Source: Bacteroidota bacterium (GTDB lineage Bacteria > Bacteroidota > Bacteroidia > NS11-12g > UBA955). Taken from it: 41,586 nucleotides of DNA. Positions 1 to 25,169 of this stretch are shown in pieces. The notes under the pieces were generated by a model that was given only the letters and a program-made list of their open reading frames with translations, had not been told where the DNA came from and searched no databases. The translations under genes were made by a program, and so were the position numbers. Each line of letters starts with the position of its first letter. Position 1 is the first letter of the stretch. The stretch covers positions 1-41,586 of the forward strand of contig CANFXY010000004.1 in NCBI GenBank assembly GCA_947451105.1, given 5' to 3'.

Positions 1-225
1 CAACCTCGCATCATGAATTCTATACTCAAAGGCATAATATTCGCCTAGCTCAGAATCCTGTTCTTGGTTATTAAATCCAAACCTATATTTACTCGTATCT
101 GCACCATCAGAGTAGGCGTATTGGAGCTCTGGAATAGAACTGCCGAAGGTAGAACTATACAAATTGCTTCTTTTTATAGAAGGGCTTTGTTTGGGGACAC
201 TTGCAAAGTTTGCAGATTTGTACAT
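1..225 (-). CDS. Partial Rhs-core cassette protein (runs off the left edge of the window); paralog of 1189..2232
   Basis: Not in the ORF track. Hand translation from ATG 225 gives MYKSANFASVPKQSPSIKRSNLYSSTFGSSIPELQYAYSDGADTSKYRFGFNNQEQDSELGEYYAFEYRIHDARL..., colinear with the N-terminus of the 347-aa ORF. Confidence 0.85.
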   Translation of the reverse strand, partial: MYKSANFASVPKQSPSIKRSNLYSSTFGSSIPELQYAYSDGADTSKYRFGFNNQEQDSELGEYYAFEYRIHDARL

Positions 226-276
226 CTAATGGCTAGCTTTGAATCAAAAATAATAGGTAATTATGACAAAAGCAAA
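209..276. promoter_or_regulatory. Overlapping divergent Bacteroidota sigma-A promoter pair (copy A)
   Basis: Plus strand: TTTG 209-212, 21-nt spacer, TAGCTTTG 234-241. Minus strand: TTTG (caaa 273-276), 20-nt spacer, TATTTTTG (caaaaata 245-252). Confidence 0.7.
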
Positions 277-292
277 CCACTTACTCCCCATT
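263..292 (+). pseudogene. Stub of tyrosine integrase 5' end (about 10 codons)
   Basis: Reads MTKANHLLPI versus MTKTNQLIPL at 2270; similarity is lost after about position 292. Confidence 0.7.
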
Positions 293-491
293 AACTATTT
301 TGTTTTAAATTGGGTAGTTTATGCATATGGCGTAAGATTATCTACAAATACAAATCTAAAACATTGTTGCTTGAAATTTTGAAACAAAATTGCATAATAC
401 TCTAATTGAATCATTTTGGCCTGAGTTACTTAGCCAATGATCATAATTTAGATAATTAATAAAATCTATATATTCATTTTCAAAAAAAGTC

Positions 492-1175
492 TTACTCTTT
501 AATTATCCTCATTATTCCATTGTTTGCATTTAGTTCGTATACGACAGGTTTCTCATAAGTTAAAAATTGATAGTACTTTTTCAATTCGCCCCCATCTTTT
601 ATTAATAAAACTTCAACTTTAATAGCTTCATTTTTCCTAAAATAAACTGGCTCGCTGTAATCTGAGAGTTTGTATTTTAAATAATTATATTCATAAAAAA
701 GTTGATCAACAATAGAATCATTAAAATACTTTGTGACATTTACTTTCATTAAATCTACCCCTTGATCACCAATTTTATTATTGAATGTTACTCGAAATCG
801 AGAATGATAATTGACAATGTAAGTGGTGTCATTATTTTTAAAGTCAAAGTAAAATCTTTGAAATCCTTCTGTGCTTTTATCACTATAACAAACTTGGAAT
901 TTTTTTAAAAAGTTTTTGTCCAAATTCTTCTTAGAAATATGTATAACCCCATGCCTATCTGGGGAAAATTGTATCCCTTTTTTTAAATCTTCTTCATTTG
1001 GATAAATTTCATTGTATTCAATAATTTTACAGCAATATTCTTTTAAGATCTTAAAATCGTCATGGTTTAAAAATTTCATAGAAATCGTATCACTGTTATA
1101 CTTTTGTATGTTTACAGCAACTTTTTTTTCTCCGGCATTACAAGCGGATAGGATTATCAAAAATATATATTTCAT
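492..1175 (-). CDS. Putative lipoprotein; candidate immunity/partner of the upstream Rhs-CT
   Basis: Lipoprotein-like signal MKYIFLIILSAC; starts 13 nt after the Rhs-CT stop; very AT-rich. Confidence 0.7.
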   Translation of the reverse strand: MKYIFLIILSACNAGEKKVAVNIQKYNSDTISMKFLNHDDFKILKEYCCKIIEYNEIYPNEEDLKKGIQFSPDRHGVIHISKKNLDKNFLKKFQVCYSDKSTEGFQRFYFDFKNNDTTYIVNYHSRFRVTFNNKIGDQGVDLMKVNVTKYFNDSIVDQLFYEYNYLKYKLSDYSEPVYFRKNEAIKVEVLLIKDGGELKKYYQFLTYEKPVVYELNANNGIMRIIKE

Positions 1176-1188
1176 TTTTTATAGTTTT

Positions 1189-2232
1189 TTACTTCACTAT
1201 ATAATCATCCATACTAATTTCTTTGCCAATTATTGTCTCTTTGACTTCATAAGTAATAATCTCTTTTGTAATTGTTTTTTTTACTTTATCATCCTTCCAT
1301 ATTTCCCACCAACTTTTTTCTGGATTTTTAACCCATATCTCTTCCGTTACTGTAGTAACAACCTTTACTTTTGTTAATTTCACAAAATTACCTTCGCCTA
1401 CGATTTTGAATTTTCCATTTGCATTTTTTGGATCAATCATTGCCATTGTGCCAGTTGCTGCAATTACAGTGGCACCGGTTTCTAAACACAATTCTTTGGC
1501 AAATGAATTCCCAATGACATATGCACCTGAATTTGCAGTGTTACATGCATTTAAAAAAAATGTTGTATTGGATGTAAACTTTATCAACCCCGATTGTAAA
1601 TTTTCTTTAAGTAATAAAATAGTTTGAGTGTAAAAACCTTTTTGATCTTGCATCAATAATCCTGAAGCATCTCCATGCCCAAAATAGGCAATGTATGAGA
1701 TTGAACCATTATTTTTAGTTTCATTAATCAGAGTAGCTATTATTTCTTGAGCTGTCGTTACTTGACTATAATTAAACCCAAATAATTTACTAATTCTTTG
1801 ACCTTGTTTTTTAAACATTTTTACATTAGTAGCACTGTAATGATTATTGCCAGGGGTATTATATAGCTCAATTGGAACACTTCCAGATAATGCAACTTTT
1901 TCTAGACCTTCCAAATCTATACATCTAACTACATCATTTTCAGCAAAAGCATAAGTACTATTCCAGGAATATTCCATACTCAAAGGATCTACACTCAAAA
2001 ATCTCCCCAACCTCGCATCATGAATTCTATACTCAAAGGCATAGTATTCGCCCAATTCTGCATCTTGTTCTTGATTATTAAACCCAAACCTATATTTACT
2101 CGTATCTGCCCCGTCAGAGTAAGCATATTGGAGCTCTGGAATAGAACTGCCGAAGGGAGGGTAATACAAAGTTGTCCGTTTCGATGAAGTGCTTGGTTTT
2201 AGTGTACTTACAAAATTTGCAATTTTGAACAT
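1189..2232 (-). CDS. Rhs repeat-associated core protein with C-terminal His/Cys (clan CD/DUF4347-like) domain
   Basis: YYPPFG, KYRFGFNNQE, RIHDARLGRFLSVDPL, YAFAENDVVRCIDLEG (DxxG-type boundary). The CT has IAYFGHG...FFLNACNTA. No YD-repeat shell. Confidence 0.85.
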   Translation of the reverse strand: MFKIANFVSTLKPSTSSKRTTLYYPPFGSSIPELQYAYSDGADTSKYRFGFNNQEQDAELGEYYAFEYRIHDARLGRFLSVDPLSMEYSWNSTYAFAENDVVRCIDLEGLEKVALSGSVPIELYNTPGNNHYSATNVKMFKKQGQRISKLFGFNYSQVTTAQEIIATLINETKNNGSISYIAYFGHGDASGLLMQDQKGFYTQTILLLKENLQSGLIKFTSNTTFFLNACNTANSGAYVIGNSFAKELCLETGATVIAATGTMAMIDPKNANGKFKIVGEGNFVKLTKVKVVTTVTEEIWVKNPEKSWWEIWKDDKVKKTITKEIITYEVKETIIGKEISMDDYIVK

Positions 2233-2299
2233 CTTTGGGCTAGCTTTGACTCAAAAATAATATGTAAATATGACAAAAACAAACCAATTAATCCCTCTT
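2008..2299. repeat. Direct repeat copy B
   Basis: See copy A; constant 2007-nt offset. Confidence 0.92.
2216..2283. promoter_or_regulatory. Overlapping divergent sigma-A promoter pair: integrase promoter (+) and cassette promoter (-)
   Basis: Plus strand: TTTG 2216-2219, 21 nt, TAGCTTTG 2241-2248, ATG 2270. Minus strand: TTTG (caaa 2280-2283, inside the integrase CDS), 20 nt, TATTTTTG (2252-2259), ATG 2232. Confidence 0.72.
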
Positions 2300-3316
2300 A
2301 CTCAATTGTATCAAAAGTATGTAGATGAAACCACAAAGGGAAAAAGATTACAGAAAAACGGCAAAATAGTTAACCAATCTACAATAAGGTCATATAATGT
2401 TTTATTGAATAATATTAAATTGTATGAATCTAATTCAAAAGAAACTTTCGTTATTAATGTTAACTACAAATACAGTAAGAGACTGTTTGATTTAGAAAAA
2501 AGAAAATATCATAAGTTTTATATAAAATTTACTGACTTTCTTTATCAAAAAGGATGCACAGATAACTATGTAGGAATTTTGATTAAATATCTCCGTTCAT
2601 TTTTTAATTACTTGAACGAAAACAAAGGTTATAATACAGGCTTATTTTACAAAGAATTCTATATTAGAAAAGAAGAAATACCTGTTATTGTTTTAAATAT
2701 GATGCAGCTAAAACTTTTAATTTCAAATCGAGAATTCGAATCTAAATTACCAAAGCATCTTATGACAACTAAAGACTTATTTGTTTTTGGGTGTACAGTC
2801 GGGCTAAGATTTTCTGATTTGATTTCACTTAAGAAGAAAAATCTAATCATAGATGAAAACAAATACTATATTGTGTCACGCTCATTAAAAACCTCTACAG
2901 ATACTAGAATCAAATTACCCGAATATGCGAGAGATATATTAATCAAATACAAAACTAATCCTAAAAATCTACTTCCCACTATTTCACTAAACCAATTCAA
3001 TAAAAACCTAAAAGATATTGGTCTTATTGCGGGATGGACTTATGAAGTTGGAAAAGAAAGGTGTCGCAGAGGAGTCAGGAAGGAAATTAAAAATAATGGT
3101 AAGACCTACCGATTTTGTGACTTAATATCAAGTCATATCATGAGAAGAACTGCAATAACAACATTATTAATCCATGGCATGCCTGAGCCATTGGTGAGAA
3201 AGATCTCTGGCCATGCTCCGGGTAGCAAAGAATTTTACAAATACGTCCAATATTCTGAATCTTTTCTCGATAAAGAAACGGATAGAGTTTTTGATCTTGT
3301 GATGAGTATATATTGA
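2270..3316 (+). CDS. Tyrosine-type recombinase/integrase
   Basis: Catalytic set visible: GLRFSDL (R), LKTS (K), SHIMRRT (HxxR), ISGH (H), FYKYV (Y). Confidence 0.93.
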   Translation: MTKTNQLIPLTQLYQKYVDETTKGKRLQKNGKIVNQSTIRSYNVLLNNIKLYESNSKETFVINVNYKYSKRLFDLEKRKYHKFYIKFTDFLYQKGCTDNYVGILIKYLRSFFNYLNENKGYNTGLFYKEFYIRKEEIPVIVLNMMQLKLLISNREFESKLPKHLMTTKDLFVFGCTVGLRFSDLISLKKKNLIIDENKYYIVSRSLKTSTDTRIKLPEYARDILIKYKTNPKNLLPTISLNQFNKNLKDIGLIAGWTYEVGKERCRRGVRKEIKNNGKTYRFCDLISSHIMRRTAITTLLIHGMPEPLVRKISGHAPGSKEFYKYVQYSESFLDKETDRVFDLVMSIY

Positions 3317-3374
3317 ACTTTTTTCTTGCATAAATCTAACAAATCGGTTTAATTTGAATAAAATAAACTAAACT

Positions 3375-5762
3375 ATGCGACAGTTGCTTTTATTTGCTTT
3401 TATTAGTAGTGCAACTTTAATTCATGCTCAAATTATAACGAAGTCAATTCCAATAATTGATACTTCTACGAATAGGATCAAAGTTTTAGGCTTTAAAAGC
3501 ACCCCATTTGACACCTCAAGCCTCTTTAATAAGAATTCTAAATTCAAGCAAAGAACCCACCAATTCGCTGACTCGCAAATTTTAGAAAAGCAAAAAAGCA
3601 AAGTTAGAATTACAACTGAAGCTCAAAACACCTTTGGGTTAAATAAAAAAAGAGAATTTCTAGAAAAAATAAAGGCAAAAATCCCACCCAAAGAGAACCT
3701 CTTTAAATTCTCATTGCAATTGCGTTCAGAATCTTTTGCAACCAATGCTCAGAATCCAATGCAAAGAAATGAGTTGATGTATAGCAGATTGTATGTCAGT
3801 CCGAAGTTTACATTGCTAGGATTGCCATTTACATCAAATTTGTTCTATACCACTGAGTCTAATAATACCTATAAGAATAACTATTTTGCATTTAGACTGG
3901 ATGTCAATAGTCTCAGACAATCGGCTGCAGAGCAAATGCAAAAAGAGATTGATGAAATAAACAAATTAGACAGATTACGTCAATTAGATATCAATGCTAA
4001 ATCGATCGAGTCAGATAAAATCAATCAGCAATTAGAATTGCTTAAAAAACAAGTGCCTGATTACGACAATTGGCAACAAACATTAAAGCAAGAGGCTGAA
4101 AGAAAGGTTAACGAGAAACTAGAATGCGAGAAAAAGGCATTAGAAGAAAAACTCAAAACCGCATCAGAAAATGAGAAAGAAAAATTGATACAGGCTTATG
4201 AGCACAAGAAAGACTCAATGGTGTCGACTATTAAGCAGTCAATAAATGATTCTATAAATGATTTAAAGGTTAAAACGAGAAAACAGGTTGATACTTCTAA
4301 ATTAAATAAGTTACTGGCACTAGAAGAACAATATAAGACTCTACAAAAGCAAAAAGAAAAACTAGAACTTCTGCGCAAAGCTGATACGACTGGTATGGCT
4401 TCTAAAATTGCAGGAATTCGGAATCCTAAAAATATAAGAGATCAAATGAAGTCTGGTATGCCAAATCAAGGTCTTTTGAAAAGTGTCTTGGCAGTTGATA
4501 GGTTTGGTATTGGTTTGACTGGTGCCATGTATACGGATTTTACTTTAAGTAACATGTCATTGAAAGGAGTTGATATTGGAGTCAGTAAGAAAAAGTACTT
4601 TTGGGATGCAACAATTGGAAAAACAACTAAGCAATTCTTATTGCCTTTTTCTACAAGTAAAATAGTATATAATCGACCCACAGGCGCACTCCGATTTGGA
4701 ATAGGTTCCAGGAGTTCAGATTTTGTAGCACTCACTTATTTTTCTGCATTTGATTTAAATACAATTGATTCATTCTCCCCCAATGTAAATAATTCGGTAT
4801 TGAGTATTGGGGGTAAACTTAGTTTATTAAAAGGATTGGCAGTTGAAGGAGAATGGGCCCAAAGCCAATACAAAGAACATTATCACTATAAGGTTATTAC
4901 CACAAATACGTCAAACAATATATCAGCGAATGGCACCATGTCATATCAATTAAAAGCTGTTCAACAGGCTGGCAAAAATACAAAGTTTGAAATACAAACA
5001 CGTCAAGTGGGAGCAGCGTTTAGGACAATAGGAAACCCGTTTTTAAGGAGAAACTTTAGAGAACTTGAGTCAAAAGTTGAGCAATTGTTTTTTAAGCAGA
5101 AAATTAAATTTTCAGCAAGTTACAAAGAAATGCGAGACAACCTTAATGAGTTAAATATCACTACCAACAGAATAAAGGGCTATGGATTGAAACTAAATAC
5201 CTCTTTTGACAAATACCCAAACTTGATGTTAAGTTATAGTCCGTATATCCAAGGGAACAACCACCCGGATAGTTTATATAGAACCAATAATCAATTTTCA
5301 ATAACTACGGCAACAATAAACTATAAAAAGAGGTATAAAATTTACAATTGGGTTGGATTGGTCAATTACACAAAATCAACCATGGAAATTGGAGATAAAG
5401 GGCAAGTAGCATATAAAAACATAAGTACCACCCATTCGATTCAAGTTGGTCAAAGACATAACATGCTCTTGTCTTTTTTTAGAAACATTACTGCACCATT
5501 TGTCGATTCTTTAAATTCAAATTCAGTTCAAGTAAGTTATAATTATCTTGCTAAAAAAGGGCTATCAATTGGCCTGCAAACTGATTATTTAAAATACAAG
5601 AACAATGCATTCAAGCAAGGTGTTGGAATAGTTGCAACATCTACAATTTTAAAGAATCTTTCAATTTCAGGTATTGTGCGATATGACAAAATCGATGGAT
5701 TGTGGAAGTTGGAAAATAAAAATGTTTTTACAGGGAAAATGGTTTTGGTGTGGAGGTGGTAG
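3375..5762 (+). CDS. Secreted/outer-membrane beta-barrel-like protein with a coiled-coil insertion
   Basis: Signal peptide MRQLLLFAFISSATLIHA-Q; E/K/Q-rich helical middle; amphipathic strands; terminal aromatic residue (LVWRW). Confidence 0.65.
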   Translation: MRQLLLFAFISSATLIHAQIITKSIPIIDTSTNRIKVLGFKSTPFDTSSLFNKNSKFKQRTHQFADSQILEKQKSKVRITTEAQNTFGLNKKREFLEKIKAKIPPKENLFKFSLQLRSESFATNAQNPMQRNELMYSRLYVSPKFTLLGLPFTSNLFYTTESNNTYKNNYFAFRLDVNSLRQSAAEQMQKEIDEINKLDRLRQLDINAKSIESDKINQQLELLKKQVPDYDNWQQTLKQEAERKVNEKLECEKKALEEKLKTASENEKEKLIQAYEHKKDSMVSTIKQSINDSINDLKVKTRKQVDTSKLNKLLALEEQYKTLQKQKEKLELLRKADTTGMASKIAGIRNPKNIRDQMKSGMPNQGLLKSVLAVDRFGIGLTGAMYTDFTLSNMSLKGVDIGVSKKKYFWDATIGKTTKQFLLPFSTSKIVYNRPTGALRFGIGSRSSDFVALTYFSAFDLNTIDSFSPNVNNSVLSIGGKLSLLKGLAVEGEWAQSQYKEHYHYKVITTNTSNNISANGTMSYQLKAVQQAGKNTKFEIQTRQVGAAFRTIGNPFLRRNFRELESKVEQLFFKQKIKFSASYKEMRDNLNELNITTNRIKGYGLKLNTSFDKYPNLMLSYSPYIQGNNHPDSLYRTNNQFSITTATINYKKRYKIYNWVGLVNYTKSTMEIGDKGQVAYKNISTTHSIQVGQRHNMLLSFFRNITAPFVDSLNSNSVQVSYNYLAKKGLSIGLQTDYLKYKNNAFKQGVGIVATSTILKNLSISGIVRYDKIDGLWKLENKNVFTGKMVLVWRW

Positions 5763-6119
5763 TATTAATAAGGTTTAAGAATTGCTTTTATAAATTCTAG
5801 TTTTCATTTCATTTAACAATAAGTAAGATGAGTATATTTATTCATGAAATGTGCTTTTTTAAAATACGATTCTATAAAAACAAAATGCATACCTCAATTG
5901 GTGGTATTTCATAATCAAATAAACCAAAATGACGATTGCATTATTGAATATACTTTTACATTCCAATGTTGAAGTACTTTACCGGTTTGTACATGATAAT
6001 CATCAAATTGAATTAATTGACGAATCTTTAAAAATGAAAAGAAATATTTAAAATTTACCTAAATAAGTACATTTATATTACAAACTAGTCATCAATTTTG
6101 AACTTAAAATATCAATCAC

Positions 6120-6174
6120 TTTTAGAGGGGCAATTTGGACTGAATTTAGAGGGTCGGTTTGGGGTAATTATGCA
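6120..6174. mobile_element. Isolated IS21-like terminal sequence
   Basis: Two related units 24 nt apart (tttagaggggcaatttgg 6121; tttagagggtcggtttgg 6145) ending in TGCA at 6174, resembling the multiple-repeat ends of IS21 elements. No istA/istB present. Confidence 0.4.
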
Positions 6175-6388
6175 ATATAGCCAAGATCTCGCATCCATCT
6201 TAATAATCGACCGTGGTCAGACTTACCAGTATACTTTCTCCAAATATAATCCTTGCTCGAACCACTGGATAAATTATCCTTAATAACTTCATTCTTGTCT
6301 TGGCCAGTAAAATATCTGACTGATTTGGGTATTATATTTTTTCTTCATATTTACTTTTTTTTGTGTAAACCTATTTTAGGACAAGACA
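6175..6388 (-). pseudogene. IS3-family left end with frameshifted, truncated orfA remnant
   Basis: Terminal sequence TGTCTTGTCCTAAAATAGGTTTACAC from 6388. A minus frame reads RYFTGQDKNEVIKDNLSSGSSKDYIWRKYTGKSDHGRLLRWMRDLGY (HTH OrfA-like), out of frame with ATG 6348 and ending at the IS21-like end. Confidence 0.55.
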
Positions 6389-6494
6389 ATCGGCAGCGAG
6401 GGTCAAATAAAAAAAGCAAAAATATTATGTTTGTTTTAACTTTACTAGGTCTGTTTGACCTTAATTTCAGAAGTAAAGAAATGCTAATTTCTGT

Positions 6495-7208
6495 TTATAA
6501 TATTAAATCAAATAATTTATAGTAAAAAATATCAAGATATAATGAATTTCCTATGGATCTTTTGTAACTTTTATTTTCCTCATTAGGAGGATTTGTCCCA
6601 ATATACTTACTTCCAAAATAATATTTAAAAACGGGAATAAAGCTGCAGCTATCATAATCTATATAATACAAATAATTATATGCTTTTTTGGGAGATGATT
6701 TTAATTCAAGCTTACCTATATCTCCATTTAAAATCTTAATTTTCAAATCATCAATATTCAACAATTCAATTCTATTCTCGAAAAACAACGGGTACATTTC
6801 ATTATTTTTATTAATCTCGATAGCTTTATGTAAAACGCACTTTTCTAATCCTTTTTTAAATATAATCATCCTTACAAGCTCCCCAAATTTGTAGGTGCAA
6901 AATAACATTGTAGAGTCTTCATGATAAATATATTTGTTATTATTGTTCTCTATGACATAATCTTCAAACAATAACTCAGCTTCTTTTTTATAAAAAAATT
7001 GGTATTTATATTCTTTTGAATTATGAAATACAAGATTGATTTTTACTGGGTAACAATTTTCGTTTATTGCAGTGTCAGTTGGCTCCAACAGGAATGTGTT
7101 AAAATAATTAGAAGATTTATTCATACTAGTTTTAACTTGACAAAAGCTAAAAACAAAAATACTAAAAAAGAATATATTTATTTTCATATAATTTTGGAAT
7201 TTATTCAA
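6495..7208 (-). CDS. Putative lipoprotein/exported protein; candidate immunity/partner of the fused Rhs-CT
   Basis: Starts 3 nt after the stop of 7212..11426; MKINIFFFSIFVFSFC lipoprotein-like signal (alternative start 7187). Confidence 0.7.
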   Translation of the reverse strand: MNKFQNYMKINIFFFSIFVFSFCQVKTSMNKSSNYFNTFLLEPTDTAINENCYPVKINLVFHNSKEYKYQFFYKKEAELLFEDYVIENNNNKYIYHEDSTMLFCTYKFGELVRMIIFKKGLEKCVLHKAIEINKNNEMYPLFFENRIELLNIDDLKIKILNGDIGKLELKSSPKKAYNYLYYIDYDSCSFIPVFKYYFGSKYIGTNPPNEENKSYKRSIGNSLYLDIFYYKLFDLIL

Positions 7209-7211
7209 TAA

Positions 7212-10200
7212 TTACGGAGAACTAATCATTTTATTTTTTGGTTTTGATCTCCCTTTTGGTTTTGGCTTATCAACTTTACCGGTATGAATTAAACTGCTCC
7301 CGTTTATCATTGTAACAAAGCTTCCATCATTCCTAATTTTTAGGTTGCCAACCTGTTCTATGCTCTTTCCTTTAGGAGCAGCTTTGGACCATTTTCGAGC
7401 ATTTGAAGTGGCCATTTCTTGATAAGCTGATTCATGACCATCCCACGGTCCTCCAATAAAAAAATCACTAAACAAGCTTGCTCCAAGATATGACTCTCCT
7501 TGATTTCCATATACATTTCTTTTTGTTAGATCAGCAAATTTTTGAATATATTTATCCCCTCCAATTTGATGTGCTGCTGTAAAACAACCAAGTAGAATTA
7601 TATTCCCTGACTCTAATAAATTATTTCCTAAATCCTCTAAAGTTTTAGCTAATAAAACGCTTTCAGAATAGTAGTAATTGCCAATTCCTTGAGCAGAATA
7701 AGTATAAATTCCATGCCCAACAATATACATATTATTGTATGTTTTTCCACTTGTATTTAATTGAATATTTAAATTTTCGATATTGTCTACAACAAGTACA
7801 TCAATATTAGAATTATTCATTGCAGCTTGATAAGCATTATAAAATGTCCCACCTACTTTGGAATCACTTTCACTAAACACTGTTATAGATTTTGCAGTTT
7901 CACCTAGTGGTTTTGCAAAACCCACTGAATCACCGTTTTGGTCAACGAATACAATTGGATTATTTAGAAAGCAAGAATATCCACTTACACCTCTTAAAGA
8001 CTTTGGATCGATGTTAAACCTCCTGCCCAATCGGCTATCGAACTGCCAATATTCTGCAGTATACGAATTATCTTCTCCTGATACTTCATTATCTTTTTCT
8101 TGCCCATTAAACCCAAACCTATATTTACTCGTATCTGCCCCGTCAGAGTAGGCATATTGAAGTTCTGGTATGGAACTTCCGATATTACTATAACTTCGGC
8201 TAACATCAGTGTCGTAAGGGCCAAAGAATTTAATGTAGATGTCTAAGGATTTTTGAAAATACTCTATAGCTTTCGAATATATTTTTTCTCCACTCCATAT
8301 TTTTCCAATTTGTTCGTAATCAAAAGCTACATTTGGATGTTCAATTCCCCAAAATTTCATATCAATTGCCAAGGATTTTTCGGCATACTCCATTGCCAAT
8401 AAATATTCTCCTTTATGATACATTGCACTACCTATCATGTAGTTTGAAACCGATAATTCAGGGTGCACATTACCTAATAGTTTTGCTTTAATATCAAAGC
8501 TTATAAGGTAATTTTCTAATGCATTTTTATAAGTTCCTCTGGCTTCCCATAGACTTCCTATGCTTTCATAGGCGTCAGCTACAAAAATATTTTCTGGCCC
8601 ATAGGTTTTTAAGCGAATCACTAAGGATTTTTGAAGAAATTCCATGGCCATGTCGTATTTATCTTGCCTTTTTAGATTTTTTCCAATTTGCCCATAAGAA
8701 TATGAGATTTTAGGATGTTCAGTACCCAACGATTTTATTTTAATATCTAAGGATTTTTGAAATAGGTCAATAGCCTTACTAATGTTTCCAAAATTGGATT
8801 CAAGAACTCCGATGCAGTCCATTATTTGAAAATCATTTTGCATGATTTCTAGATTAAAATCTAATTTATTAAAGTGTTTTAATGCCTCCTCTTTTTCAAA
8901 AAGATGAATGGCCATTAATCCTAACATGATCGCTTCCTTGCAATCAAATTTATTTAGCGGCATTAATTCACTAAGAAAATCTTTCCGAATAACATGCAAC
9001 TGCAATTCTTCCAACTGCTTATCCAATTTCAACAAAGCCTTCCAATCATTTTCCGTAGGATTTTCTAATATTTTTTCAATTAGTTTTTTGCTGCCAAATG
9101 ACTTTAAATACAAGAGCAAAGGGTTGATGCATAAGTCTATGCCTTCTGTTCCAGAATCTATTAATTCAACAATAAGGCTGATGTCTTCCATTAAAGCCCT
9201 TTCAGATAAGTAATATTCTATGCCGCCCTTGTGAAGCTTGTTTTTGTCTTTTAAAATGGTGTTTATAAAGGCTAACTCAATTTTGTCTTCCTCATTTTGG
9301 AGTTTTTGCCCCAATACATACAACAATGCGCCCTCAACGGTAAAAGCAATGCAGGCGTTTAAGTCTTTCGTGTAACGGCTGATCCAACCTAGGTTTTTTA
9401 ATCTTGGGTAGGGTGAATTGATGTTGTCAGAAACCAGATAATCTTTAAGTGTTTCGTTTTTCAATACATCATCCAGGAACAATTCGTTTTCGCCTTTCTC
9501 CCAAATTTTATTTGCCAATAAGTTAAAAAATATTTGCTCATCTTCAGTGAAGGTTTTTAACCAGTCTTTCCATATATTTAAATGCAGTATGCCTTTTTTC
9601 GGTAAGGACTTTCCATTGTATATTTCTAAAAATATGCGGAGTACTAAGGGGTTGCTAATTTGGTTGTACAGCCCGCGGTCAAAGCTTGCGATGTCATCAA
9701 ATTTGAACTGCGGCTTAAACCTAGACTTGTCCTTGCTGGTGTATTTGTCCCAAGCGGCGTTTAATTCCTTCATGTTCAAAGGGGTTAACCAATTGGCATA
9801 AGCACTTAGGCCTTCTTCGTTCTCGCTTTTTTCTCCGTAAATTTTTTGTAAATCTTCTTCTGATAGGGCATAACGGTTTAAATCCGCTTTTGAATTGGCT
9901 CTGCTGCTGACCACAAATTTTAAACTTCCCGCCTCAAACAACTTCGAAAGTTCTATAATTTCAGTCCAAAGATCCTCTGCATTGTGTGCCTCATTCAGAC
10001 CATCAATCAAAATAAAACAAGGTTCATTTTGAGTGCCTGCAATATTTGTATAGGTTCTTAATTCAGAGGCAAGATCAATATTTAGCAAATAAGCAATCTG
10101 CTCTTTAATTGTTGGCTTTTCCATTCGCCCAGCCCGTATAAGTAGGCTGGGTAAATTCCTTTCATGGTATTGCTTTTGAATTTCTACCAAAAGATTTGTT

Positions 10201-11408
10201 TTTCCGCTTCCCGCCTCCGCAGAAATAAAGAAAATACTTGCCCTGGCGCCTATCCATTCTCTGAGTTTTATTTCAATGTCCTCACGGTGCACATAAATAC
10301 CGGGCAGCACTTTTTTTTCTGCCAGCAAGGTGTCGTTTAGCAACTTATTTTCTTCTGCAATTCTTGTTAAGAAAACCTCTTTGGTAAAGGTCTCTGGCGA
10401 ATATGGAACTTCTTTCTGTTTGTTGCGCAAAAGCAAATTCAGCTTTTCAAGGATCTTGCCAGAGCTTTGTTTTTCAGTGCCTTCAGGACTGAAGAACTTT
10501 ATGGTCTTACCGGTATAGGACTCATAAGCTAAAATTTGTTCTTTGTCTTCCTTCGCCAAAGACACTTCTCCAGGGACAACAAAGAATGGCAATACATCAA
10601 GCGTCTCACCCTTTGGATTGGTAAGCCATACACTTCCACTTTCTTGCTGCTTGCTTTCATAGATCTTAATTTCGGATGAATGCAATAAATAGGTTTCACC
10701 ATGCTCATGCTTGCTCATGGCATAATCCGATGCGAAGGCCATTTGCTCCAATAGATGTCTAAAAATAGGGAAGTATTCCTCCCAAAGTTTCAGGCAAGAA
10801 TGTTCATCTAAGGTTAAACCATGTCCCAAATAACGGTTGCGAAAATTAATAAGCATACCAATTGCTGTTGCTTCTTGCTTTTTTAATTGGACATCGCCAT
10901 TGGCATCTATGAATTCAATTTCTCCGTTGTATAATTTTCTTTTTTTACCTGTTTCAATGGCCTCATAATAGCTGTTTAATTCAGGGCAGAAAAACGCATG
11001 CTCTGTTTCGTTTAGATATTTAAGTGTTTCACGCACAAATAAATTCCATGTTCCAAATGAAGGTTCTGCAATGCTTTGCTGAAATAAGGCTACCATGCGT
11101 TTGTCTTTCAATGGGCTATTGAAAAATTCTGAGGCACTTAAGAGTCCCAAATACTTTAAGTAGTTTAAGAAAGTGTCTTTAAACAGGTTGATTTTAGTCC
11201 ATGGGTGTTTTTCCAATAAGGTGCGCTTTAAAGGATAGGCAATAACATAGGGCAAAGCCGCAATCAATGCTTCATCTTCATCAGACAATTCATTACTTTC
11301 AATGAGTTCAATTAGTGCCTGGGCACAAACCGGACAATTCATGGCAGCCGGAAATGCAGCTTTGGAAATGGCAATGGCACAGGTGGGGTTTTGGCAAATA
11401 AATTTCAT
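7212..11408 (-). CDS. Chimeric protein: Zn-ribbon, HEPN-like domain, NACHT-type STAND ATPase, winged helix, 42-aa TPRs, Rhs core, His/Cys CT domain
   Basis: CQNPTC...CPVC; FRNRYLGHG; Walker A AEAGSGKT; Walker B FILIDGLNE; NPLVLR; five TPRs plus a truncated sixth (SYSNIG); then SSIPELQYAYSDG...RLGRRFNIDP...NNPIVFVDQNGD; CT with IVGHG...LLGC. ATG 11408 preferred over TTG 11426. Confidence 0.85.
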   Translation of the reverse strand: MKFICQNPTCAIAISKAAFPAAMNCPVCAQALIELIESNELSDEDEALIAALPYVIAYPLKRTLLEKHPWTKINLFKDTFLNYLKYLGLLSASEFFNSPLKDKRMVALFQQSIAEPSFGTWNLFVRETLKYLNETEHAFFCPELNSYYEAIETGKKRKLYNGEIEFIDANGDVQLKKQEATAIGMLINFRNRYLGHGLTLDEHSCLKLWEEYFPIFRHLLEQMAFASDYAMSKHEHGETYLLHSSEIKIYESKQQESGSVWLTNPKGETLDVLPFFVVPGEVSLAKEDKEQILAYESYTGKTIKFFSPEGTEKQSSGKILEKLNLLLRNKQKEVPYSPETFTKEVFLTRIAEENKLLNDTLLAEKKVLPGIYVHREDIEIKLREWIGARASIFFISAEAGSGKTNLLVEIQKQYHERNLPSLLIRAGRMEKPTIKEQIAYLLNIDLASELRTYTNIAGTQNEPCFILIDGLNEAHNAEDLWTEIIELSKLFEAGSLKFVVSSRANSKADLNRYALSEEDLQKIYGEKSENEEGLSAYANWLTPLNMKELNAAWDKYTSKDKSRFKPQFKFDDIASFDRGLYNQISNPLVLRIFLEIYNGKSLPKKGILHLNIWKDWLKTFTEDEQIFFNLLANKIWEKGENELFLDDVLKNETLKDYLVSDNINSPYPRLKNLGWISRYTKDLNACIAFTVEGALLYVLGQKLQNEEDKIELAFINTILKDKNKLHKGGIEYYLSERALMEDISLIVELIDSGTEGIDLCINPLLLYLKSFGSKKLIEKILENPTENDWKALLKLDKQLEELQLHVIRKDFLSELMPLNKFDCKEAIMLGLMAIHLFEKEEALKHFNKLDFNLEIMQNDFQIMDCIGVLESNFGNISKAIDLFQKSLDIKIKSLGTEHPKISYSYGQIGKNLKRQDKYDMAMEFLQKSLVIRLKTYGPENIFVADAYESIGSLWEARGTYKNALENYLISFDIKAKLLGNVHPELSVSNYMIGSAMYHKGEYLLAMEYAEKSLAIDMKFWGIEHPNVAFDYEQIGKIWSGEKIYSKAIEYFQKSLDIYIKFFGPYDTDVSRSYSNIGSSIPELQYAYSDGADTSKYRFGFNGQEKDNEVSGEDNSYTAEYWQFDSRLGRRFNIDPKSLRGVSGYSCFLNNPIVFVDQNGDSVGFAKPLGETAKSITVFSESDSKVGGTFYNAYQAAMNNSNIDVLVVDNIENLNIQLNTSGKTYNNMYIVGHGIYTYSAQGIGNYYYSESVLLAKTLEDLGNNLLESGNIILLGCFTAAHQIGGDKYIQKFADLTKRNVYGNQGESYLGASLFSDFFIGGPWDGHESAYQEMATSNARKWSKAAPKGKSIEQVGNLKIRNDGSFVTMINGSSLIHTGKVDKPKPKGRSKPKNKMISSP
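8108..8182. repeat. Direct repeat copy C (Rhs-core start only)
   Basis: aaacccaaacctatatttactcgtatctgccccgtcagagta is identical to copy B; similarity stops abruptly at ccga 8179-8182. Confidence 0.9.
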
Positions 11409-11713
11409 GGTTTTGATGCGAAACAATTATAATAGAAATATTTCAGTAAATTTAAATTCAAGCTACTTAATTTAATATTTATTAATATTCTAATGTATAC
11501 ATTTTTGTTGAAGGCTAAAGTTTTTTCAATGAAAGAGGCGTTTGCCTCAATGAAGTTTAACTTTAAAACCATGAAAGAGCTTTTCCCTTAAAATAAAATC
11601 CCCTTCAACCCTTCCTTTATCTCTATTCTTCATTGAATATTTTTTAATATTTAAAATAAGAGTCCTATATTGCCAACAGATATTAAAATAAAGCCTTAAA
11701 GGCAAGCATTATT

Positions 11714-12787
11714 TTGGCTAGAAATCAATCATTTCAACAAAGAAACTTAGGGAAGGATCCTTTATCAAACGATAAAAACAAGGGTTGTTTTAGTTCGTTT
11801 GGAACGGTCATGTGGATTTTCTTGTTGGCTTATACATTTTCTAAATCCATGCCGGTGTTTTATTTGTTGTTGGCGGTGTCCATTTTATGGGGAATAACCC
11901 GTTTCTTTTTTAAAAATGTTTTAGGCAGAATATTAACTTTTGTTTTAATTATTTTCTTAGGTGTGTATGCCTTGTCTTTTGTGTTTAAAAAGGGTAAGGA
12001 ACTTGTTCCTGAGGAATCCAACAGTGGCATTATTAGGGTTGATCCGCCGCGAATGGGCAAGATAAAACCGGGAACAAATGAGCGGGATTTGTTGAGTGAT
12101 AAATACTTCAGTTGGTATGATTTTTCAAACAGCAATTACCAAGCAGATTATTCGACCTCTAATTTTTCGTTTATTGCTTCTCAAGAAAAACATCAAGAAA
12201 TAGCATCGTCTATTAATGCTTCAAATAGCATAGAATACTTTAACCAAGTTTACCTTGGCTTGAATAAATACGACAGCAAAAAAATGAACACCTTGGTGGA
12301 TTTATTTAGGGATTCAGCTAAAAAAATGAATCTATCTACCTTGCAATTGGCGGAGATGGTGACCACCTTTGTTCAACAAATTCCTTATGTGTTGGTGCAC
12401 GATGGAACTTGTGAAGTGGCCTCTAAAGAAGCTGAGTTTATGAAAGACTATCATGAAGCGGGCAATCCTTGTTTGGCCAATATCCCTGCTGGTGTTCAAT
12501 CGCCATACGAGTTCATTCACAACCTAAAAGGCGATTGCGATACGCGCACTTTGCTCGCCTTTACCATATTAAAGAAATTAAAAATCCCAGCATCCATTTG
12601 GGTAAGCGAGGCCTATGGGCACAGCATACTTGGTATCGGTTTGCCTTTTGCCAGCGGCTTTCACAAAGAAGTAGCGGGCGTAAACCATTACTCGGCAGAA
12701 TTAACCGCCAGGTGCAGAATCGGTTTTGTCAGCCCGGAGCAAAACGAAGAAAGCAATTGGGATATCGCATTGTACTATCAACCTTAA
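11714..12787 (+). CDS. Membrane-anchored transglutaminase-like (Cys-His-acid) protein
   Basis: Three N-terminal hydrophobic helices; KGDCDTRT, YGHSILG and HYSAELT motifs; TTG start. Confidence 0.7.
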   Translation: MARNQSFQQRNLGKDPLSNDKNKGCFSSFGTVMWIFLLAYTFSKSMPVFYLLLAVSILWGITRFFFKNVLGRILTFVLIIFLGVYALSFVFKKGKELVPEESNSGIIRVDPPRMGKIKPGTNERDLLSDKYFSWYDFSNSNYQADYSTSNFSFIASQEKHQEIASSINASNSIEYFNQVYLGLNKYDSKKMNTLVDLFRDSAKKMNLSTLQLAEMVTTFVQQIPYVLVHDGTCEVASKEAEFMKDYHEAGNPCLANIPAGVQSPYEFIHNLKGDCDTRTLLAFTILKKLKIPASIWVSEAYGHSILGIGLPFASGFHKEVAGVNHYSAELTARCRIGFVSPEQNEESNWDIALYYQP

Positions 12788-12790
12788 AAT

Positions 12791-13297
12791 ATGAAATTAA
12801 TCATTATAATTCAAGTCGTTTTGGCCTTTGTTATAGGCATCGGATCCTTGTTTGTTCTTTACCGTTTGTTAAACAATTATATTCGTAAAAAATCTGAAAT
12901 TTCAGAGACCAATACGGCTTTTGCTGTCTTTCAAGTGGGTATACTATTGTCTGGATCTTTAATCATGTCTTCCGTTGTCAATCCTGCGGTGAATGCCATT
13001 CGTTTCTTGAACCAAGAGGAGATTATCAATGTTCAGAGTTGTGTAACTTCCTTGGTTTATGTTGCGATGTTTGTTGTTATTGGAATCATATGCACCATTA
13101 TGGTTATAGCCGGAGGCGTATTTACTTTTTTTCAACTTACCCAGGTGAATGAATGGGATGAAATTAAACAAAACAACATTCCCACTTCTCTTATATCAGC
13201 GGCAATCATCGTTGGGCTTTCTTTGATTATGGATGAGTATGTTGGTCACTTGTGTGAGGCCTTAATACCTTATCCTGACGTACTTCAAATTCGATAA
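12791..13297 (+). CDS. DUF350-like four-TM membrane protein
   Basis: Two-fold TM-hairpin repeat; NEWDEIKQNNIPTSLISAAIIVGLSLI is typical of DUF350. Confidence 0.7.
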   Translation: MKLIIIIQVVLAFVIGIGSLFVLYRLLNNYIRKKSEISETNTAFAVFQVGILLSGSLIMSSVVNPAVNAIRFLNQEEIINVQSCVTSLVYVAMFVVIGIICTIMVIAGGVFTFFQLTQVNEWDEIKQNNIPTSLISAAIIVGLSLIMDEYVGHLCEALIPYPDVLQIR

Positions 13298-13387
13298 ATT
13301 TGCAGAGACGCTTACCGCGTGGTACCAATCAAAACATTTTATTACAGTTATTCAACAGGTTTAATGGTAAATCTATAAATTCACAAT

Positions 13388-14752
13388 ATGAAAATAAATA
13401 AATCAATCATAAAGATTGTAGGGCTTCTCGGCGATTTTAATAAAAAGTCTGCCCGCGTAAAATACAATCAATTCATTAATAATGGTTACAAAAGAGAATT
13501 GTTACCAGAACTAAATAATAGTAAAGAAGAGGCTGGGAGCAAGCGGTTTTTTAAAAATACATTTTACCCGGAATTCAGAGATATGATGTATCTTGGGCAA
13601 ACAGATTCTGAAGAAAAAAGATTTTCTAACAATAAGTCTTTTATTATTGATCTAGACTTTAAATCTGGGGAAATCTTAACAACGTATTCACTAAAAATTA
13701 TAAAATCTGAAATCTATGTTTTTGAAGGACATATTGGTTTATTTTCTGTTTCTGTTGAGATAATCCCAAATTATAATCCAATCAAGTCTGAATTAAATGA
13801 AGGCTCTAAAATTACAATCGATGATGCCAGCAATGTAACATCAAAATTAAGGCTTTTCGATACTGTAATTAAATATGAAAGCCGAGACTATGTCTGGTCT
13901 CAGTGGATTAGCGAATTTGTACTATGTGGTACGGAATTAGAAAGTAAGGATGGCAGTATAGTAAAGGCCGATGAGTTTTCAGGCTCAAAATTTAAATTAT
14001 ACACTGTGTATGAACTTGACGATCTTCCTGATAACAATTTGTTGTTCGATCTTGGAACATGTTCAAGGCTTGGTTCTTCTGCAGGCGTATATTCAAATGC
14101 CGTGCCCCATGAGTCTTACTACAAACGGATAATGAAAAAAAATAAGATTTCTGTCTTTCAAAATTGGGAGGCCTTGTGCCTTTTTGACACTTTCACCTGC
14201 ATAGGAAATGGGCAAATTTTAGAGAAAAGTTATGTTAGTTGGGATGAAACCTATTTTAAAATATATTTATATAGGTTGTTTTTTAAGTACAATTTGTACC
14301 GCTACAATTCGGAAATTTTTGAAGACAAACACAGCGCAATTAAAGTAAGAGATCAATTTGTTGATTTTTTAAACCGTTACGAGATTAGCCATATTTCTTT
14401 TAATTTTCTTCCCAATGAAATTTATTCTAAAATAGGTGAGGCTTTGGAATTGGAAGTTGAATTGGAAAAGTTTAAAACTAGAATCAATAATCTTTCCGAT
14501 AAAATTCAGGAAGAAAGGGAGTCAAAAACCAATATCCTATTACAGATTGTGACTGTGCTTGGCGGGATTTCTTCTGTGGGCCCAATATTGGATGGTGTTG
14601 ACCATTTCAAAGAACAAATTGGTTTTTCATCATTGGTATTCTATGCTATAACTACTGTTTTAATTCTGCTTGTTGGCATTGGTGTTTTGTATTTTATAGT
14701 CCCTCATGAATTGAAAAAAGTATGGAGAAAAATCAAATCTATATTCCGATAG
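13388..14752 (+). CDS. CorA-like membrane protein (soluble domain, long helix, two C-terminal TM helices)
   Basis: Coiled helix ELEKFKTRINNLSDKIQEERESKTN, then two hydrophobic segments and a basic tail; no GMN motif. Confidence 0.55.
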   Translation: MKINKSIIKIVGLLGDFNKKSARVKYNQFINNGYKRELLPELNNSKEEAGSKRFFKNTFYPEFRDMMYLGQTDSEEKRFSNNKSFIIDLDFKSGEILTTYSLKIIKSEIYVFEGHIGLFSVSVEIIPNYNPIKSELNEGSKITIDDASNVTSKLRLFDTVIKYESRDYVWSQWISEFVLCGTELESKDGSIVKADEFSGSKFKLYTVYELDDLPDNNLLFDLGTCSRLGSSAGVYSNAVPHESYYKRIMKKNKISVFQNWEALCLFDTFTCIGNGQILEKSYVSWDETYFKIYLYRLFFKYNLYRYNSEIFEDKHSAIKVRDQFVDFLNRYEISHISFNFLPNEIYSKIGEALELEVELEKFKTRINNLSDKIQEERESKTNILLQIVTVLGGISSVGPILDGVDHFKEQIGFSSLVFYAITTVLILLVGIGVLYFIVPHELKKVWRKIKSIFR

Positions 14753-23771: not shown

Positions 23772-25169
23772 TTGGCGAAATCAAAGTTAAATATAGAAGA
23801 AGAACTTTCCCGTTGTGTCAATCAATTGTTGTTGCAGGAACCATTCTATGCCCACGTTTTGGCAGGAACCGTGCGTGCAATTACAGATGAGGTGCAAACT
23901 GCTGCAGTGGGTTTTAGAAACGAGCTCATTATGTTGATGGTGAATGAGGACTTCTTTCTTAAAGAGCTTAAATCAGCTTACCAACGCACTGCCGTTCTCA
24001 AGCACGAGGTTTTGCACTTGGTGTTTAGACATTTGTTTAGAGATAAAATAAAAGAAGATCCTGAACTCTTCAACATTGCGGCAGACATTGTGGTGAATCA
24101 GTATATTGGCCAATGGGAATTGCCAGACTCCGCTGTTACCATTGAACGTTTTCCGGATTTAAATTTAAAAACGGAGCAAAGCCTAGAGTATTACTATGAT
24201 ATTTTATCACAGCTGCAAAAATCCATTGATCAATCCAAATCGCAACAAGAATTAGATTCGGGCAATGGAGGCGATTCAAACGGTGGATCAGGAGGGTCGC
24301 AGGGCGACAAGGGTGGTTCAGGGTCTAAAGACGATTCATCTGGGCCTGAGAAGGGCAATAAACCAAAACAAAAGGAGACTGAAAAACCCCTCCATGAGCA
24401 GGCGCCCATAAGTGCTAGCGCCTTAGAGCAAATATATGGACAAGTAAGACACGGCGACCATTCAAAATGGGTGGTGAAAGATGGGTCAAATGCGTATACA
24501 GCAGATGGAAAGTCTATTCAAGGCAATATGGTTTCAGGCATGGAAACCATGACCGATAAAAGTATTTTGGATGCAGTGCAGCGCATGCCTTCCAAATATT
24601 ATGGAACATTGCCTGCTGGGGTAATCACGCAATTGGATGCCATCCGCGAATCCATGAAACCCAAGTTGGATTGGAAAAGGGTTTTGCGCTTGTTTTCAAG
24701 TTCAAGCGGCAGAACGGTTGTATACCACAGCATGAAGCGCATCAGCAAGCGATATGGAACAAGACCCGGAGTGCGCATCAAGCAGTATAAAAAAATTGCG
24801 GTTGTGGTAGACACCTCAGGTTCTATAGATGAGAAAACGCTAATGTTTTTTTTTACAGAAATAGAAGCCATTCGCCGCAATGGTGCTGAGGTTACAATTA
24901 TAGAATGTGATGCGGCAGTTGGTAATGTATATCCGTATAAAAAGTCTGCAAACATTAAAGTTACAGGTGGTGGTGGAACCAATTACGACCCAGCTTTTGA
25001 ACACATCAACGCGAATCGAAATTTAAGGATTGATGCGTGTGTGTATTTAACGGACGGCTATGCGCCTGAGCCACAGATAAAGCCAAGATGCAAACTCTTA
25101 TACGTCATAACGCCTGATGGGAAACTAGGTCCTCATCTTAAATTTGGCAAGGCGATTAAAATGAATTAG
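23772..25169 (+). CDS. HExxH metallopeptidase-like + vWA protein (DUF2201-like)
   Basis: LKHEVLH, FNIAADIVVNQ, Gly/Ser linker, MIDAS VVDTSGS, GGGGTNY, YLTDG. Confidence 0.88.
   Translation: MAKSKLNIEEELSRCVNQLLLQEPFYAHVLAGTVRAITDEVQTAAVGFRNELIMLMVNEDFFLKELKSAYQRTAVLKHEVLHLVFRHLFRDKIKEDPELFNIAADIVVNQYIGQWELPDSAVTIERFPDLNLKTEQSLEYYYDILSQLQKSIDQSKSQQELDSGNGGDSNGGSGGSQGDKGGSGSKDDSSGPEKGNKPKQKETEKPLHEQAPISASALEQIYGQVRHGDHSKWVVKDGSNAYTADGKSIQGNMVSGMETMTDKSILDAVQRMPSKYYGTLPAGVITQLDAIRESMKPKLDWKRVLRLFSSSSGRTVVYHSMKRISKRYGTRPGVRIKQYKKIAVVVDTSGSIDEKTLMFFFTEIEAIRRNGAEVTIIECDAAVGNVYPYKKSANIKVTGGGGTNYDPAFEHINANRNLRIDACVYLTDGYAPEPQIKPRCKLLYVITPDGKLGPHLKFGKAIKMN

Follow-up and report, generated by a model that had tools for sequence, protein, structure and literature searches.

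The DNA examined here, hereafter the window, is the whole of contig CANFXY010000004.1 (C4; 41,586 nt) from a metagenome-assembled genome (MAG) of a Bacteroidota bacterium of the UBA955 lineage (GCA_947451105.1), which comprises 196 contigs and 2.76 Mb and is 86% complete. At one end of the contig lie a tyrosine recombinase gene (the integrase), a neighbouring gene for a 795-amino acid (aa) protein and three direct copies of a short repeat, each situated at the start of an RHS-associated core domain (Table 1). In the two complete copies the domain is followed by a different C-terminal, presumed toxin domain (CT) and by a downstream partner gene; one of them is an orphan module, the other is fused to the gene of an NTPase-TPR protein, the carrier. 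We propose that the window may hold the end of an array of polymorphic-toxin tip cassettes linked to a recombinase, each cassette being taken to open with a short leader, to continue with the RHS-associated core domain and a variable C-terminal domain, presumably a toxin, and to be completed by a partner gene presumed to confer immunity.

Table 1. Integrase, repeats, cassettes and carrier in the window.
Feature	Positions	Strand	Remarks
Orphan module A, 5' part (leader and start of RHS-associated core domain)	1..225	-	Open frame of 75 aa with 81% identity to residues 1-75 of orphan B; truncated by contig edge
Repeat copy A, 92 nt; proposed recombination site at the 146 end (FG codons)	55..146	-	
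Orphan A leader, copy of 37-nt intergenic stretch, integrase 5' stub	147..293	- (stub 263-293 reads +)	67%, 84% and 84% identity to 2154-2300
Partner gene of cassette B, presumed to confer immunity; 227 aa, N-terminus resembling a signal peptide	492..1175	-	Role suggested by position only
Orphan module B, 347 aa: 27-aa leader, RHS-associated core domain (aa 24-110), CT-B (presumed toxin domain)	1189..2232	-	TIGR03696
Repeat copy B; proposed site at the 2153 end	2062..2153	-	
117-nt interval from site B to integrase start: orphan leader and shared divergent control region	2154..2269	.	
Tyrosine recombinase, intact, single copy in genome	2270..3316	+	PF00589, E 3.2e-10
795-aa signal-peptide protein, family unnamed	3375..5762	+	Conserved partner of integrase clade; probably outside the cassettes
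Non-coding DNA of ~730 nt between 795-aa gene (+) and 237-aa gene (-)			
Presumed immunity gene of cassette C; 237 aa	6495..7208	-	Unrelated to B partner; role suggested by position
Cassette C fused to carrier: core domain and CT-C (presumed toxin domain)	7212..8182	-	TIGR03696 31.7 bits; weak DUF4347, E 1.9e-4
Repeat copy C; junction with TPR-coding DNA at 8182/8183	8091..8182	-	
NTPase (NACHT/AAA-like) and TPR part of carrier, cut mid-TPR repeat at residue 1083	8183..11426	-	
1404-aa gene, carrier plus cassette C	7212-11426	-	

The three copies of the 92-nt repeat are 85-92% identical, A and C matching B at 92% and 89%, respectively, and are spaced by 2007 nt (A to B) and 6029 nt (B to C). 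Every copy ends in CCGA (143-146, 2150-2153 and 8179-8182) and all three encode GSSIPELQYAYSDGADTSKYRFGFN on the minus strand, which bears out the claim, made earlier from the sequence alone, that three junctions are shared at the same nucleotide. They are the only copies in the genome, 25 of the 28 matches at E ≤ 10 being chance matches of 14-23 nt. Copies A and B resemble each other further, over 288-293 nt at 83% (1-293 vs 2008-2300): identity is 89% over 1-54, 92% over 55-146, 67% over 147-225, and 84% over both 226-262 and 263-293, after which it falls to 41%. Copy C is alike only over the stretch corresponding to 55-146 (85-89%) and at about 20-30% elsewhere. The integrase open reading frame (ORF) contributes its first 31 nt to the roughly 293 nt common to A and B, which also take in the orphan leader and 37 nt of intergenic sequence; the stub beside copy A amounts to the first ~10 codons of the integrase, reading MTKANHLLPIN where the intact gene has MTKTNQLIPLT. 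Both this stub and a divergent integrase some 120 nt from junction B had been noted from the sequence alone, and both were confirmed, the integrase starting 117 nt from the junction. No inverted repeats were found at the cassette ends within 1-14000, single-strand folding not having been tried, and scans of 1-12000 for tRNA and Rfam families found nothing.

Window repeats of 92-293 nt that are 85-92% identical also suit an ordinary array of orphan tips, in which C-terminal displacement and RecA-dependent exchange through the 92-nt core segment would account for the arrangement, the integrase being a passenger or serving another element. We regard this explanation as unlikely; the evidence on either side is given below with the results that supply it.

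The segment shared by the three copies codes for the beginning of the RHS-associated core domain (TIGR03696), not for Rhs shell. Orphan B matches the model at 47.6 bits (cut-off 32.5) over model positions 1-76, position 1 falling at residue 24 (YYPPFG), and the part in cassette C lies barely below the same cut-off; core-domain matches in the genome number four in all. The sequence-only reading had spoken of three Rhs cores, which holds for the start of the core domain and fails for the sense of Rhs proteins, the carrier being an NTPase-TPR gene. CT-B and CT-C are alike only over their first ~83 residues and the two proteins encoded downstream are unrelated, so the differing tips and partner genes of the two complete copies stand as described; the lipoprotein label given to the partners was assigned by eye only. 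The 227-aa partner belongs to no Pfam or NCBIfam family, and the tips gave only weak matches, to DUF4347 and Peptidase_C25. The CT-B family counts 92 representatives, mostly of 200-500 aa, the size of the orphan, with the domain at the C-terminus. In the full scan 5 of the 92 are on proteins of at least 1000 aa, one of them of 3027 aa; a word-based search, a weak one, found none in proteins of 609-2000 aa.

The gene that carries cassette C was earlier counted among the three Rhs cores, but is not an Rhs gene: its 1404-aa product matches NACHT/AAA and TPR families and no RHS-repeat family at E ≤ 0.01. Its 120 closest homologues are NTPase-TPR proteins of 1100-1700 aa, none of which contains the core motif, and the alignments to three of them (P0121, P0123 and P0145) end exactly at residue 1083, the G of ...SYSNIG/SSIPELQ, in the middle of a TPR repeat. 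The carrier is joined in frame to the cassette at the exact nucleotide where the homology to the orphans starts, with microhomology at the level of TCGG (~4 nt) and no flanking homology. A search of the genome for the lost 3' portion of the TPR gene found nothing, the tails of the three homologues matching only TPR repeats within the window. A fusion at this same position without flanking homology fits a site-specific event better than homologous exchange, and exchange through the core segment would here have had no homology to recombine through. The join would most simply be explained as an off-target (secondary-site) event. Further along the contig (15354-22699, minus strand), four successive ORFs of 819, 509, 566 and 556 aa are similar to the NTPase-TPR region of the 1404-aa gene (24-30%, tblastn); one tblastn match spans two of them, and they may be a split or broken paralogue.

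Chimeric assembly of the metagenome is very improbable as the source of the tandem order or of the fusion. The contig is part of a MAG and ends within repeat copy A, and positions 8001-8800 are poorly covered by public contigs, as might be expected of an artefact. Yet a de Bruijn chimera would need more than repeats of 83-92% identity and a TPR junction sharing ~4 nt; the fusion keeps the reading frame, and the same architecture occurs in relatives. Furthermore, 22 public runs are available as short contigs of 200-700 nt, and in X5, an independent run among the four compared (X1, X2, X5 and X8), a contig of 686 nt (record 19) spans 1678-2363.

The residues R180, K207, H289, R292, H315 and Y325 of the integrase are invariant among 30 homologues, and the protein has no family-level match to a named recombinase. 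Membership of the integrons, as formerly suggested, was not borne out: the integron-integrase model NF040815 is matched at 31.6 bits against a cut-off of 220, so the integrase is not of the IntI type, and no attC-like inverted repeats were found between the cassettes in 1-14000. The integrase and the 795-aa gene are the sole stretch common to the window and to its nearest clade of loci in relatives (L016, L018, L020, L021 and L126-L128). The 795-aa gene is conserved as a partner of this integrase clade and probably does not belong to a cassette. Of the two units proposed earlier, the spacings of 2007 and 6029 nt hold; the 6029-bp unit as a cassette does not, as relatives share only the integrase and the 795-aa gene. 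The family of the 795-aa protein is unnamed, its nearest named cluster being DUF6029 at 0.90. A second copy of the 795-aa gene, without the first ~100 codons, lies on contig C16 (10661-12744; 91.7% nucleotide identity), 3.3 kb downstream of a toxin gene of 2449 aa, cut at its 5' end, that has a core domain. A recombination break at PFG between the two copies (C4:3678 and C16:10661) was considered and rejected, as the break is not at PFG-like sequence and the C16 toxin is without the PFG motif. In locus L021, a second tyrosine-recombinase-like gene (7088-8353, minus strand; 421 aa), 29% identical to that of the window, lies 1.4 kb past the 795-aa gene.

The pair of genes recurs with unrelated flanks, and the integrase might belong to a small integrative element whose attachment site is the core-domain start: insertion would bring a new tip and immunity gene and displace the old tip, and the element would only integrate and excise, with no programmed shuffling. 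Its ends would be the direct repeats at 8182 and 2153, which bound a 6.0-kb stretch containing the integrase, and unit B would be a decayed earlier copy. The integrase adjoins one of the repeats, which is common among integrative elements, the stub at copy A resembles the remnant of an earlier integrase copy, and the integrase is patchily distributed, being found in 9 of 32 genomes of the genus. We nonetheless hold this account to be improbable, on the grounds of orientation discussed further on.

A search for relatives gave 2270 proteins of the integrase family at E ≤ 1e-5, and a profile scan with one genome per species gave 458 integrase relatives, the best 80 of which were examined. These 80 integrases are 43-72% identical to that of the window and come from Flavobacteriaceae, Chitinophagaceae and Cytophagales (Bacteroidota). 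At least one core-motif match was found in 65 of the 80 loci (129 matches in all), and in 14 of the 15 loci without one a contig end cuts the sequence 62-374 nt from the integrase, about where the site would be expected; only L080 has ample flanks, yet no core motif. Upstream of the integrase, 27 loci have a minus-strand site, its commonest position being -115 to -119 nt (-117 in the window); a plus-strand site lies 117-185 nt past the integrase stop in 9, and convergent sites flank the integrase on both sides in 14, mainly of Flavobacterium. It was thus confirmed that integrase homologues consistently adjoin core-domain starts, with the usual spacing found in the window. A passenger would be expected neither to accompany core motifs in so many loci nor to keep a spacing of ~117 nt across three families. 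A metagenome scan for close relatives yielded 12 loci only, the nearest 72% identical. The integrase is present in 17 of 61 related genomes and core domains in 34; of the 17 integrase-positive genomes, 16 have TIGR03696.

The position of the boundary was examined by comparing, within a locus, copies whose reading frame stays open across the 20 upstream codons and copies in which a stop interrupts it (33 pairs in 22 loci), against a control of 2550 between-locus pairs. Within-locus identity is ~0.3 at -60 to -16 and at -12 to -4 does not exceed the control; it stands at 0.99 between the start of the F codon and +8, at 0.8-0.9 to +55 and ~0.5 by +100, the control ranging from 0.34 to 0.76. The breakpoints are therefore fixed and not scattered, across families, as had been claimed in placing the site in the PFG codons.

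Copies in both orientations occur in 32 of the 41 loci with at least two copies, against 3 of ~20 integrase-free clusters in a tally made by eye. In the typical inverted layout two immunity genes separate an orphan tip from the carrier that it faces, which is longer than 2000-3000 aa. When L086 is compared with L073, L069 and L087, and L061 with L048, the flanks align reversed, the strand of the integrase is kept and the breaks fall within the inverted repeats: the integrase-bearing segment has been inverted between related Flavobacterium species. Flank identity is 86-92% over 8.3-8.6 kb for L086 vs L073 and L069, and only ~63-73% for L086 vs L087 and L061 vs L048. The cassettes inside differ between the members of a pair, so cassettes have been replaced as well. 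In one isolate assembly both ends of an integrase-bearing contig of 4911 nt coincide with the first base of the inverted repeat. This contig shares exactly 77 nt with one neighbour on either side, and its repeats have 29 exact nt in common (L070:1-29). Since a 29-nt repeat should not break a graph of k=77, these contigs suggest that both orientations probably coexisted in the isolate culture; the neighbouring contigs of two further isolates showed no overlaps. A 103-nt tandem duplication, 98% identical, was seen within the inverted repeat of the carrier in L073 (8379-8580).

Inverted copies bear on both alternatives. Integration yields direct repeats only, yet most multi-copy loci are inverted and the integrase segment itself is inverted between species; in L016, L051 and L067 the integrase stands at the far end of long direct arrays, not beside the expressed tip, and no empty site or circle of an integrative element was observed. 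Exchange through the core segment by RecA would not account for inverted copies being frequent only in integrase-linked loci. Nor would it account for a second motif confined to such loci. GTTCTT occurs upstream of 53 of 104 sites in integrase-linked loci, where ~1 would be expected from shuffles, and at none of 27 sites of integrase-free arrays. The positions of GTTCTT(T) cluster at -26, -44 and -52 to -54 (L051, L053, L058, L086, L069, L088, L054, L060, L063, L065 and others), and the Chitinophagaceae form is TCAAAGAACT, ~45 nt from the site on the integrase side. In some full-length carriers GTTCTT is coded as PDVL.

Taken together, the conserved spacing, the preponderance of inverted copies, the inversion seen between species and the fusion without homology point to the PFG codons as the likely site of the integrase. 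Several observations weigh against its action there. Integrase-free arrays in G060, G041 and G032 have the same DYYPFG boundary followed by ~20 locus-specific identical codons, so that the boundary by itself is no proof that the integrase acts there; apparently it characterises the pool of cassettes. Core domains are also found in 18 of 44 integrase-negative relatives, and for the inverted orphan clusters of G058 and G064, where a hidden integrase had been expected, none was found nearby in either. The high identity reaches 55-80 nt inside the site, which is beyond the need of a tyrosine recombinase and also fits gene conversion, and the differing cassette contents of the inverted pairs mean that those inversions could be old and RecA-mediated. 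In the window itself all three sites are direct, so inversion is impossible within the contig; the inverted sites flanking alternative gene ends that mark a shufflon are absent from it, and its clade shows direct arrays only. GTTCTT is absent from the window and from the nearest clade (L016, L021). The stub is peculiar to the window and does not occur in L016 or L021, whose repeats end 5-26 nt upstream of the site. Finally, contigs of the public runs, 200-700 nt long only, gave no circle, inversion or credible joint for the window, and the predicted circles of 2.0 kb and 6.0 kb were accordingly not seen in them; a joint 2007 to 8094 in X1 was discounted, having 24 letters on one side and matching no simple crossover product. 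The integrase-free arrays with their locus-specific identical stretch, the length of the identity inside the boundary and the lack of a recombination product in those contigs are all points in favour of RecA-dependent exchange. One integrase-free array contains only an IS3 element. In G041, of the same family as the window, core-domain matches number 46, and an integrase of this family is lacking at E ≤ 1e-40; many of its contigs start or stop inside a core copy, and some stretches are X/N.

On balance we lean slightly towards a recombinase-driven toxin-tip exchange system, which would embody the logic of the shufflon or the integron in a new form. A XerC/D-like tyrosine recombinase, coded 117 nt from the cassette start, would act at a site in the (D)YYPFG codons that open the core domain, where we tentatively place the crossover, and would catalyse the rearrangements described above. 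Where sites are inverted, as in most related loci, the segment between them would flip and fuse another toxin tip to the large carrier; where they are direct, as in the window, excision and re-insertion of cassettes would be expected. The window would then hold a cassette grafted onto an unrelated NTPase-TPR gene, with two older cassettes, B and A, behind the integrase. The integrase-driven cassette shuffling of the sequence-only reading is in part supported by linkage, spacing, fixed boundary and homology-free fusion; its integron membership, its 6029-bp cassette and its circles are not upheld, and the same boundary recurs in integrase-free arrays. As to a more general proposal we are evenly divided: widespread tyrosine recombinases of the Bacteroidota may use the DYYPFG core start as their site, tips and immunity genes being portable cassettes that are flipped or moved onto site-bearing carriers, and off-target onto unrelated genes, in a programmed toxin shufflon or integron.

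Elsewhere in the window, the non-coding stretch at 6100-6400 shows raised depth in public metagenome contigs, with many loose ends at 6354-6391, and has a single match of 62 nt (82%) on contig C51; an IS3 fragment at 6114-6390 was a guess that was not confirmed. Two very large ORFs occupy 25156-29490 (minus strand, 1444 aa) and 30888-39326 (plus strand, 2812 aa), the latter having repeated segments in common with the end of L018.

In the shufflon of plasmid R64, the Rci recombinase switches the C-termini of PilV. The related loci share its layout, a tyrosine recombinase beside short intragenic repeats whose flips would change the C-terminal part of one protein, and the window shares the adjacent recombinase. 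The payload here differs in being a toxin domain with its own immunity gene, and the site differs in lying within conserved domain-coding sequence common to many carriers, the sites of the window being moreover all direct. Integrons have in common with the window a recombinase gene that is divergent from and adjoins the cassette stack, the newest cassette being expected next to the integrase; here the site lies within coding sequence, the cassettes are gene-fusion modules and attC-like repeats are lacking. As for orphan toxin tips of Rhs-like systems, their reactivation is generally ascribed to rare homologous recombination. Koskiniemi and co-workers reportedly dealt with Rhs C-terminal displacement and orphan tips in 2014. 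Displaced tips, each with its immunity gene, keep a piece of the core, as far as the accessible text on C-terminal displacement goes (Jackson 2009 as cited in PMC13183296), and the integrase-free arrays fit this picture; judged by the same text, what differs here is the linked dedicated recombinase, the common inverted copies and, in the window, the non-Rhs carrier.

The nearest described systems, in the portions of their descriptions open to us, are rAID-1 and the polyimmunity loci adjacent to XerC/D, both of which concern immunity genes. In rAID-1, a XerD-like tyrosine recombinase stands next to arrays of orphan immunity genes with repetitive intergenic motifs in Bacteroidales, which the authors liken to integrons (bioRxiv 10.1101/471110; PMC12247911, partial text); the preprint text available sets identity of the recombinase to the B. 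fragilis reference at 44% or more (bioRxiv 10.1101/471110). The likeness to these partial descriptions lies in a recombinase by polymorphic-toxin-related cassettes in Bacteroidota, with co-directional cassettes after the recombinase in 9 related loci. The two or more co-directional genes downstream of the recombinase that characterise rAID-1 are not found in the window, where the cassettes are divergent on one side and convergent on the other. By the same descriptions, the cassettes here differ in keeping the toxin tip and in starting in core-domain codons, and many related loci have inverted sites joined to a full-length carrier. Polyimmunity loci by XerC/D recombinases, with a suggested role in gene accumulation, were reported by Zhang et al. 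(2012; PMC3482391); in the text of that article as accessible, immunity genes alone are mentioned, and the words inversion, invertase and integrase do not occur. Two surveys of gene-altering inversions name neither Rhs nor toxins in the main text open to us (PMC9881135, PMC10028968). No published description of recombinase-driven exchange of Rhs tips was found, subscription journals and supplements lying outside our reach.

Should the integrase prove to be that of an integrative element only, the locus would still define a new attachment site inside a toxin gene. If the exchange system proposed here is real, toxin switching in these bacteria would be fast, reversible and possibly regulated, and the spread of toxin and immunity cassettes between unrelated carriers and species would find an explanation. 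It would offer a simple testable system, with one enzyme and one site of ~150 bp, in harmless, culturable Flavobacterium isolates, and would connect the immunity arrays found beside recombinases in gut Bacteroidales with a wider mechanism of cassette handling. It would also represent, from the genome of a lake bacterium, a new way for bacteria to change weapons.

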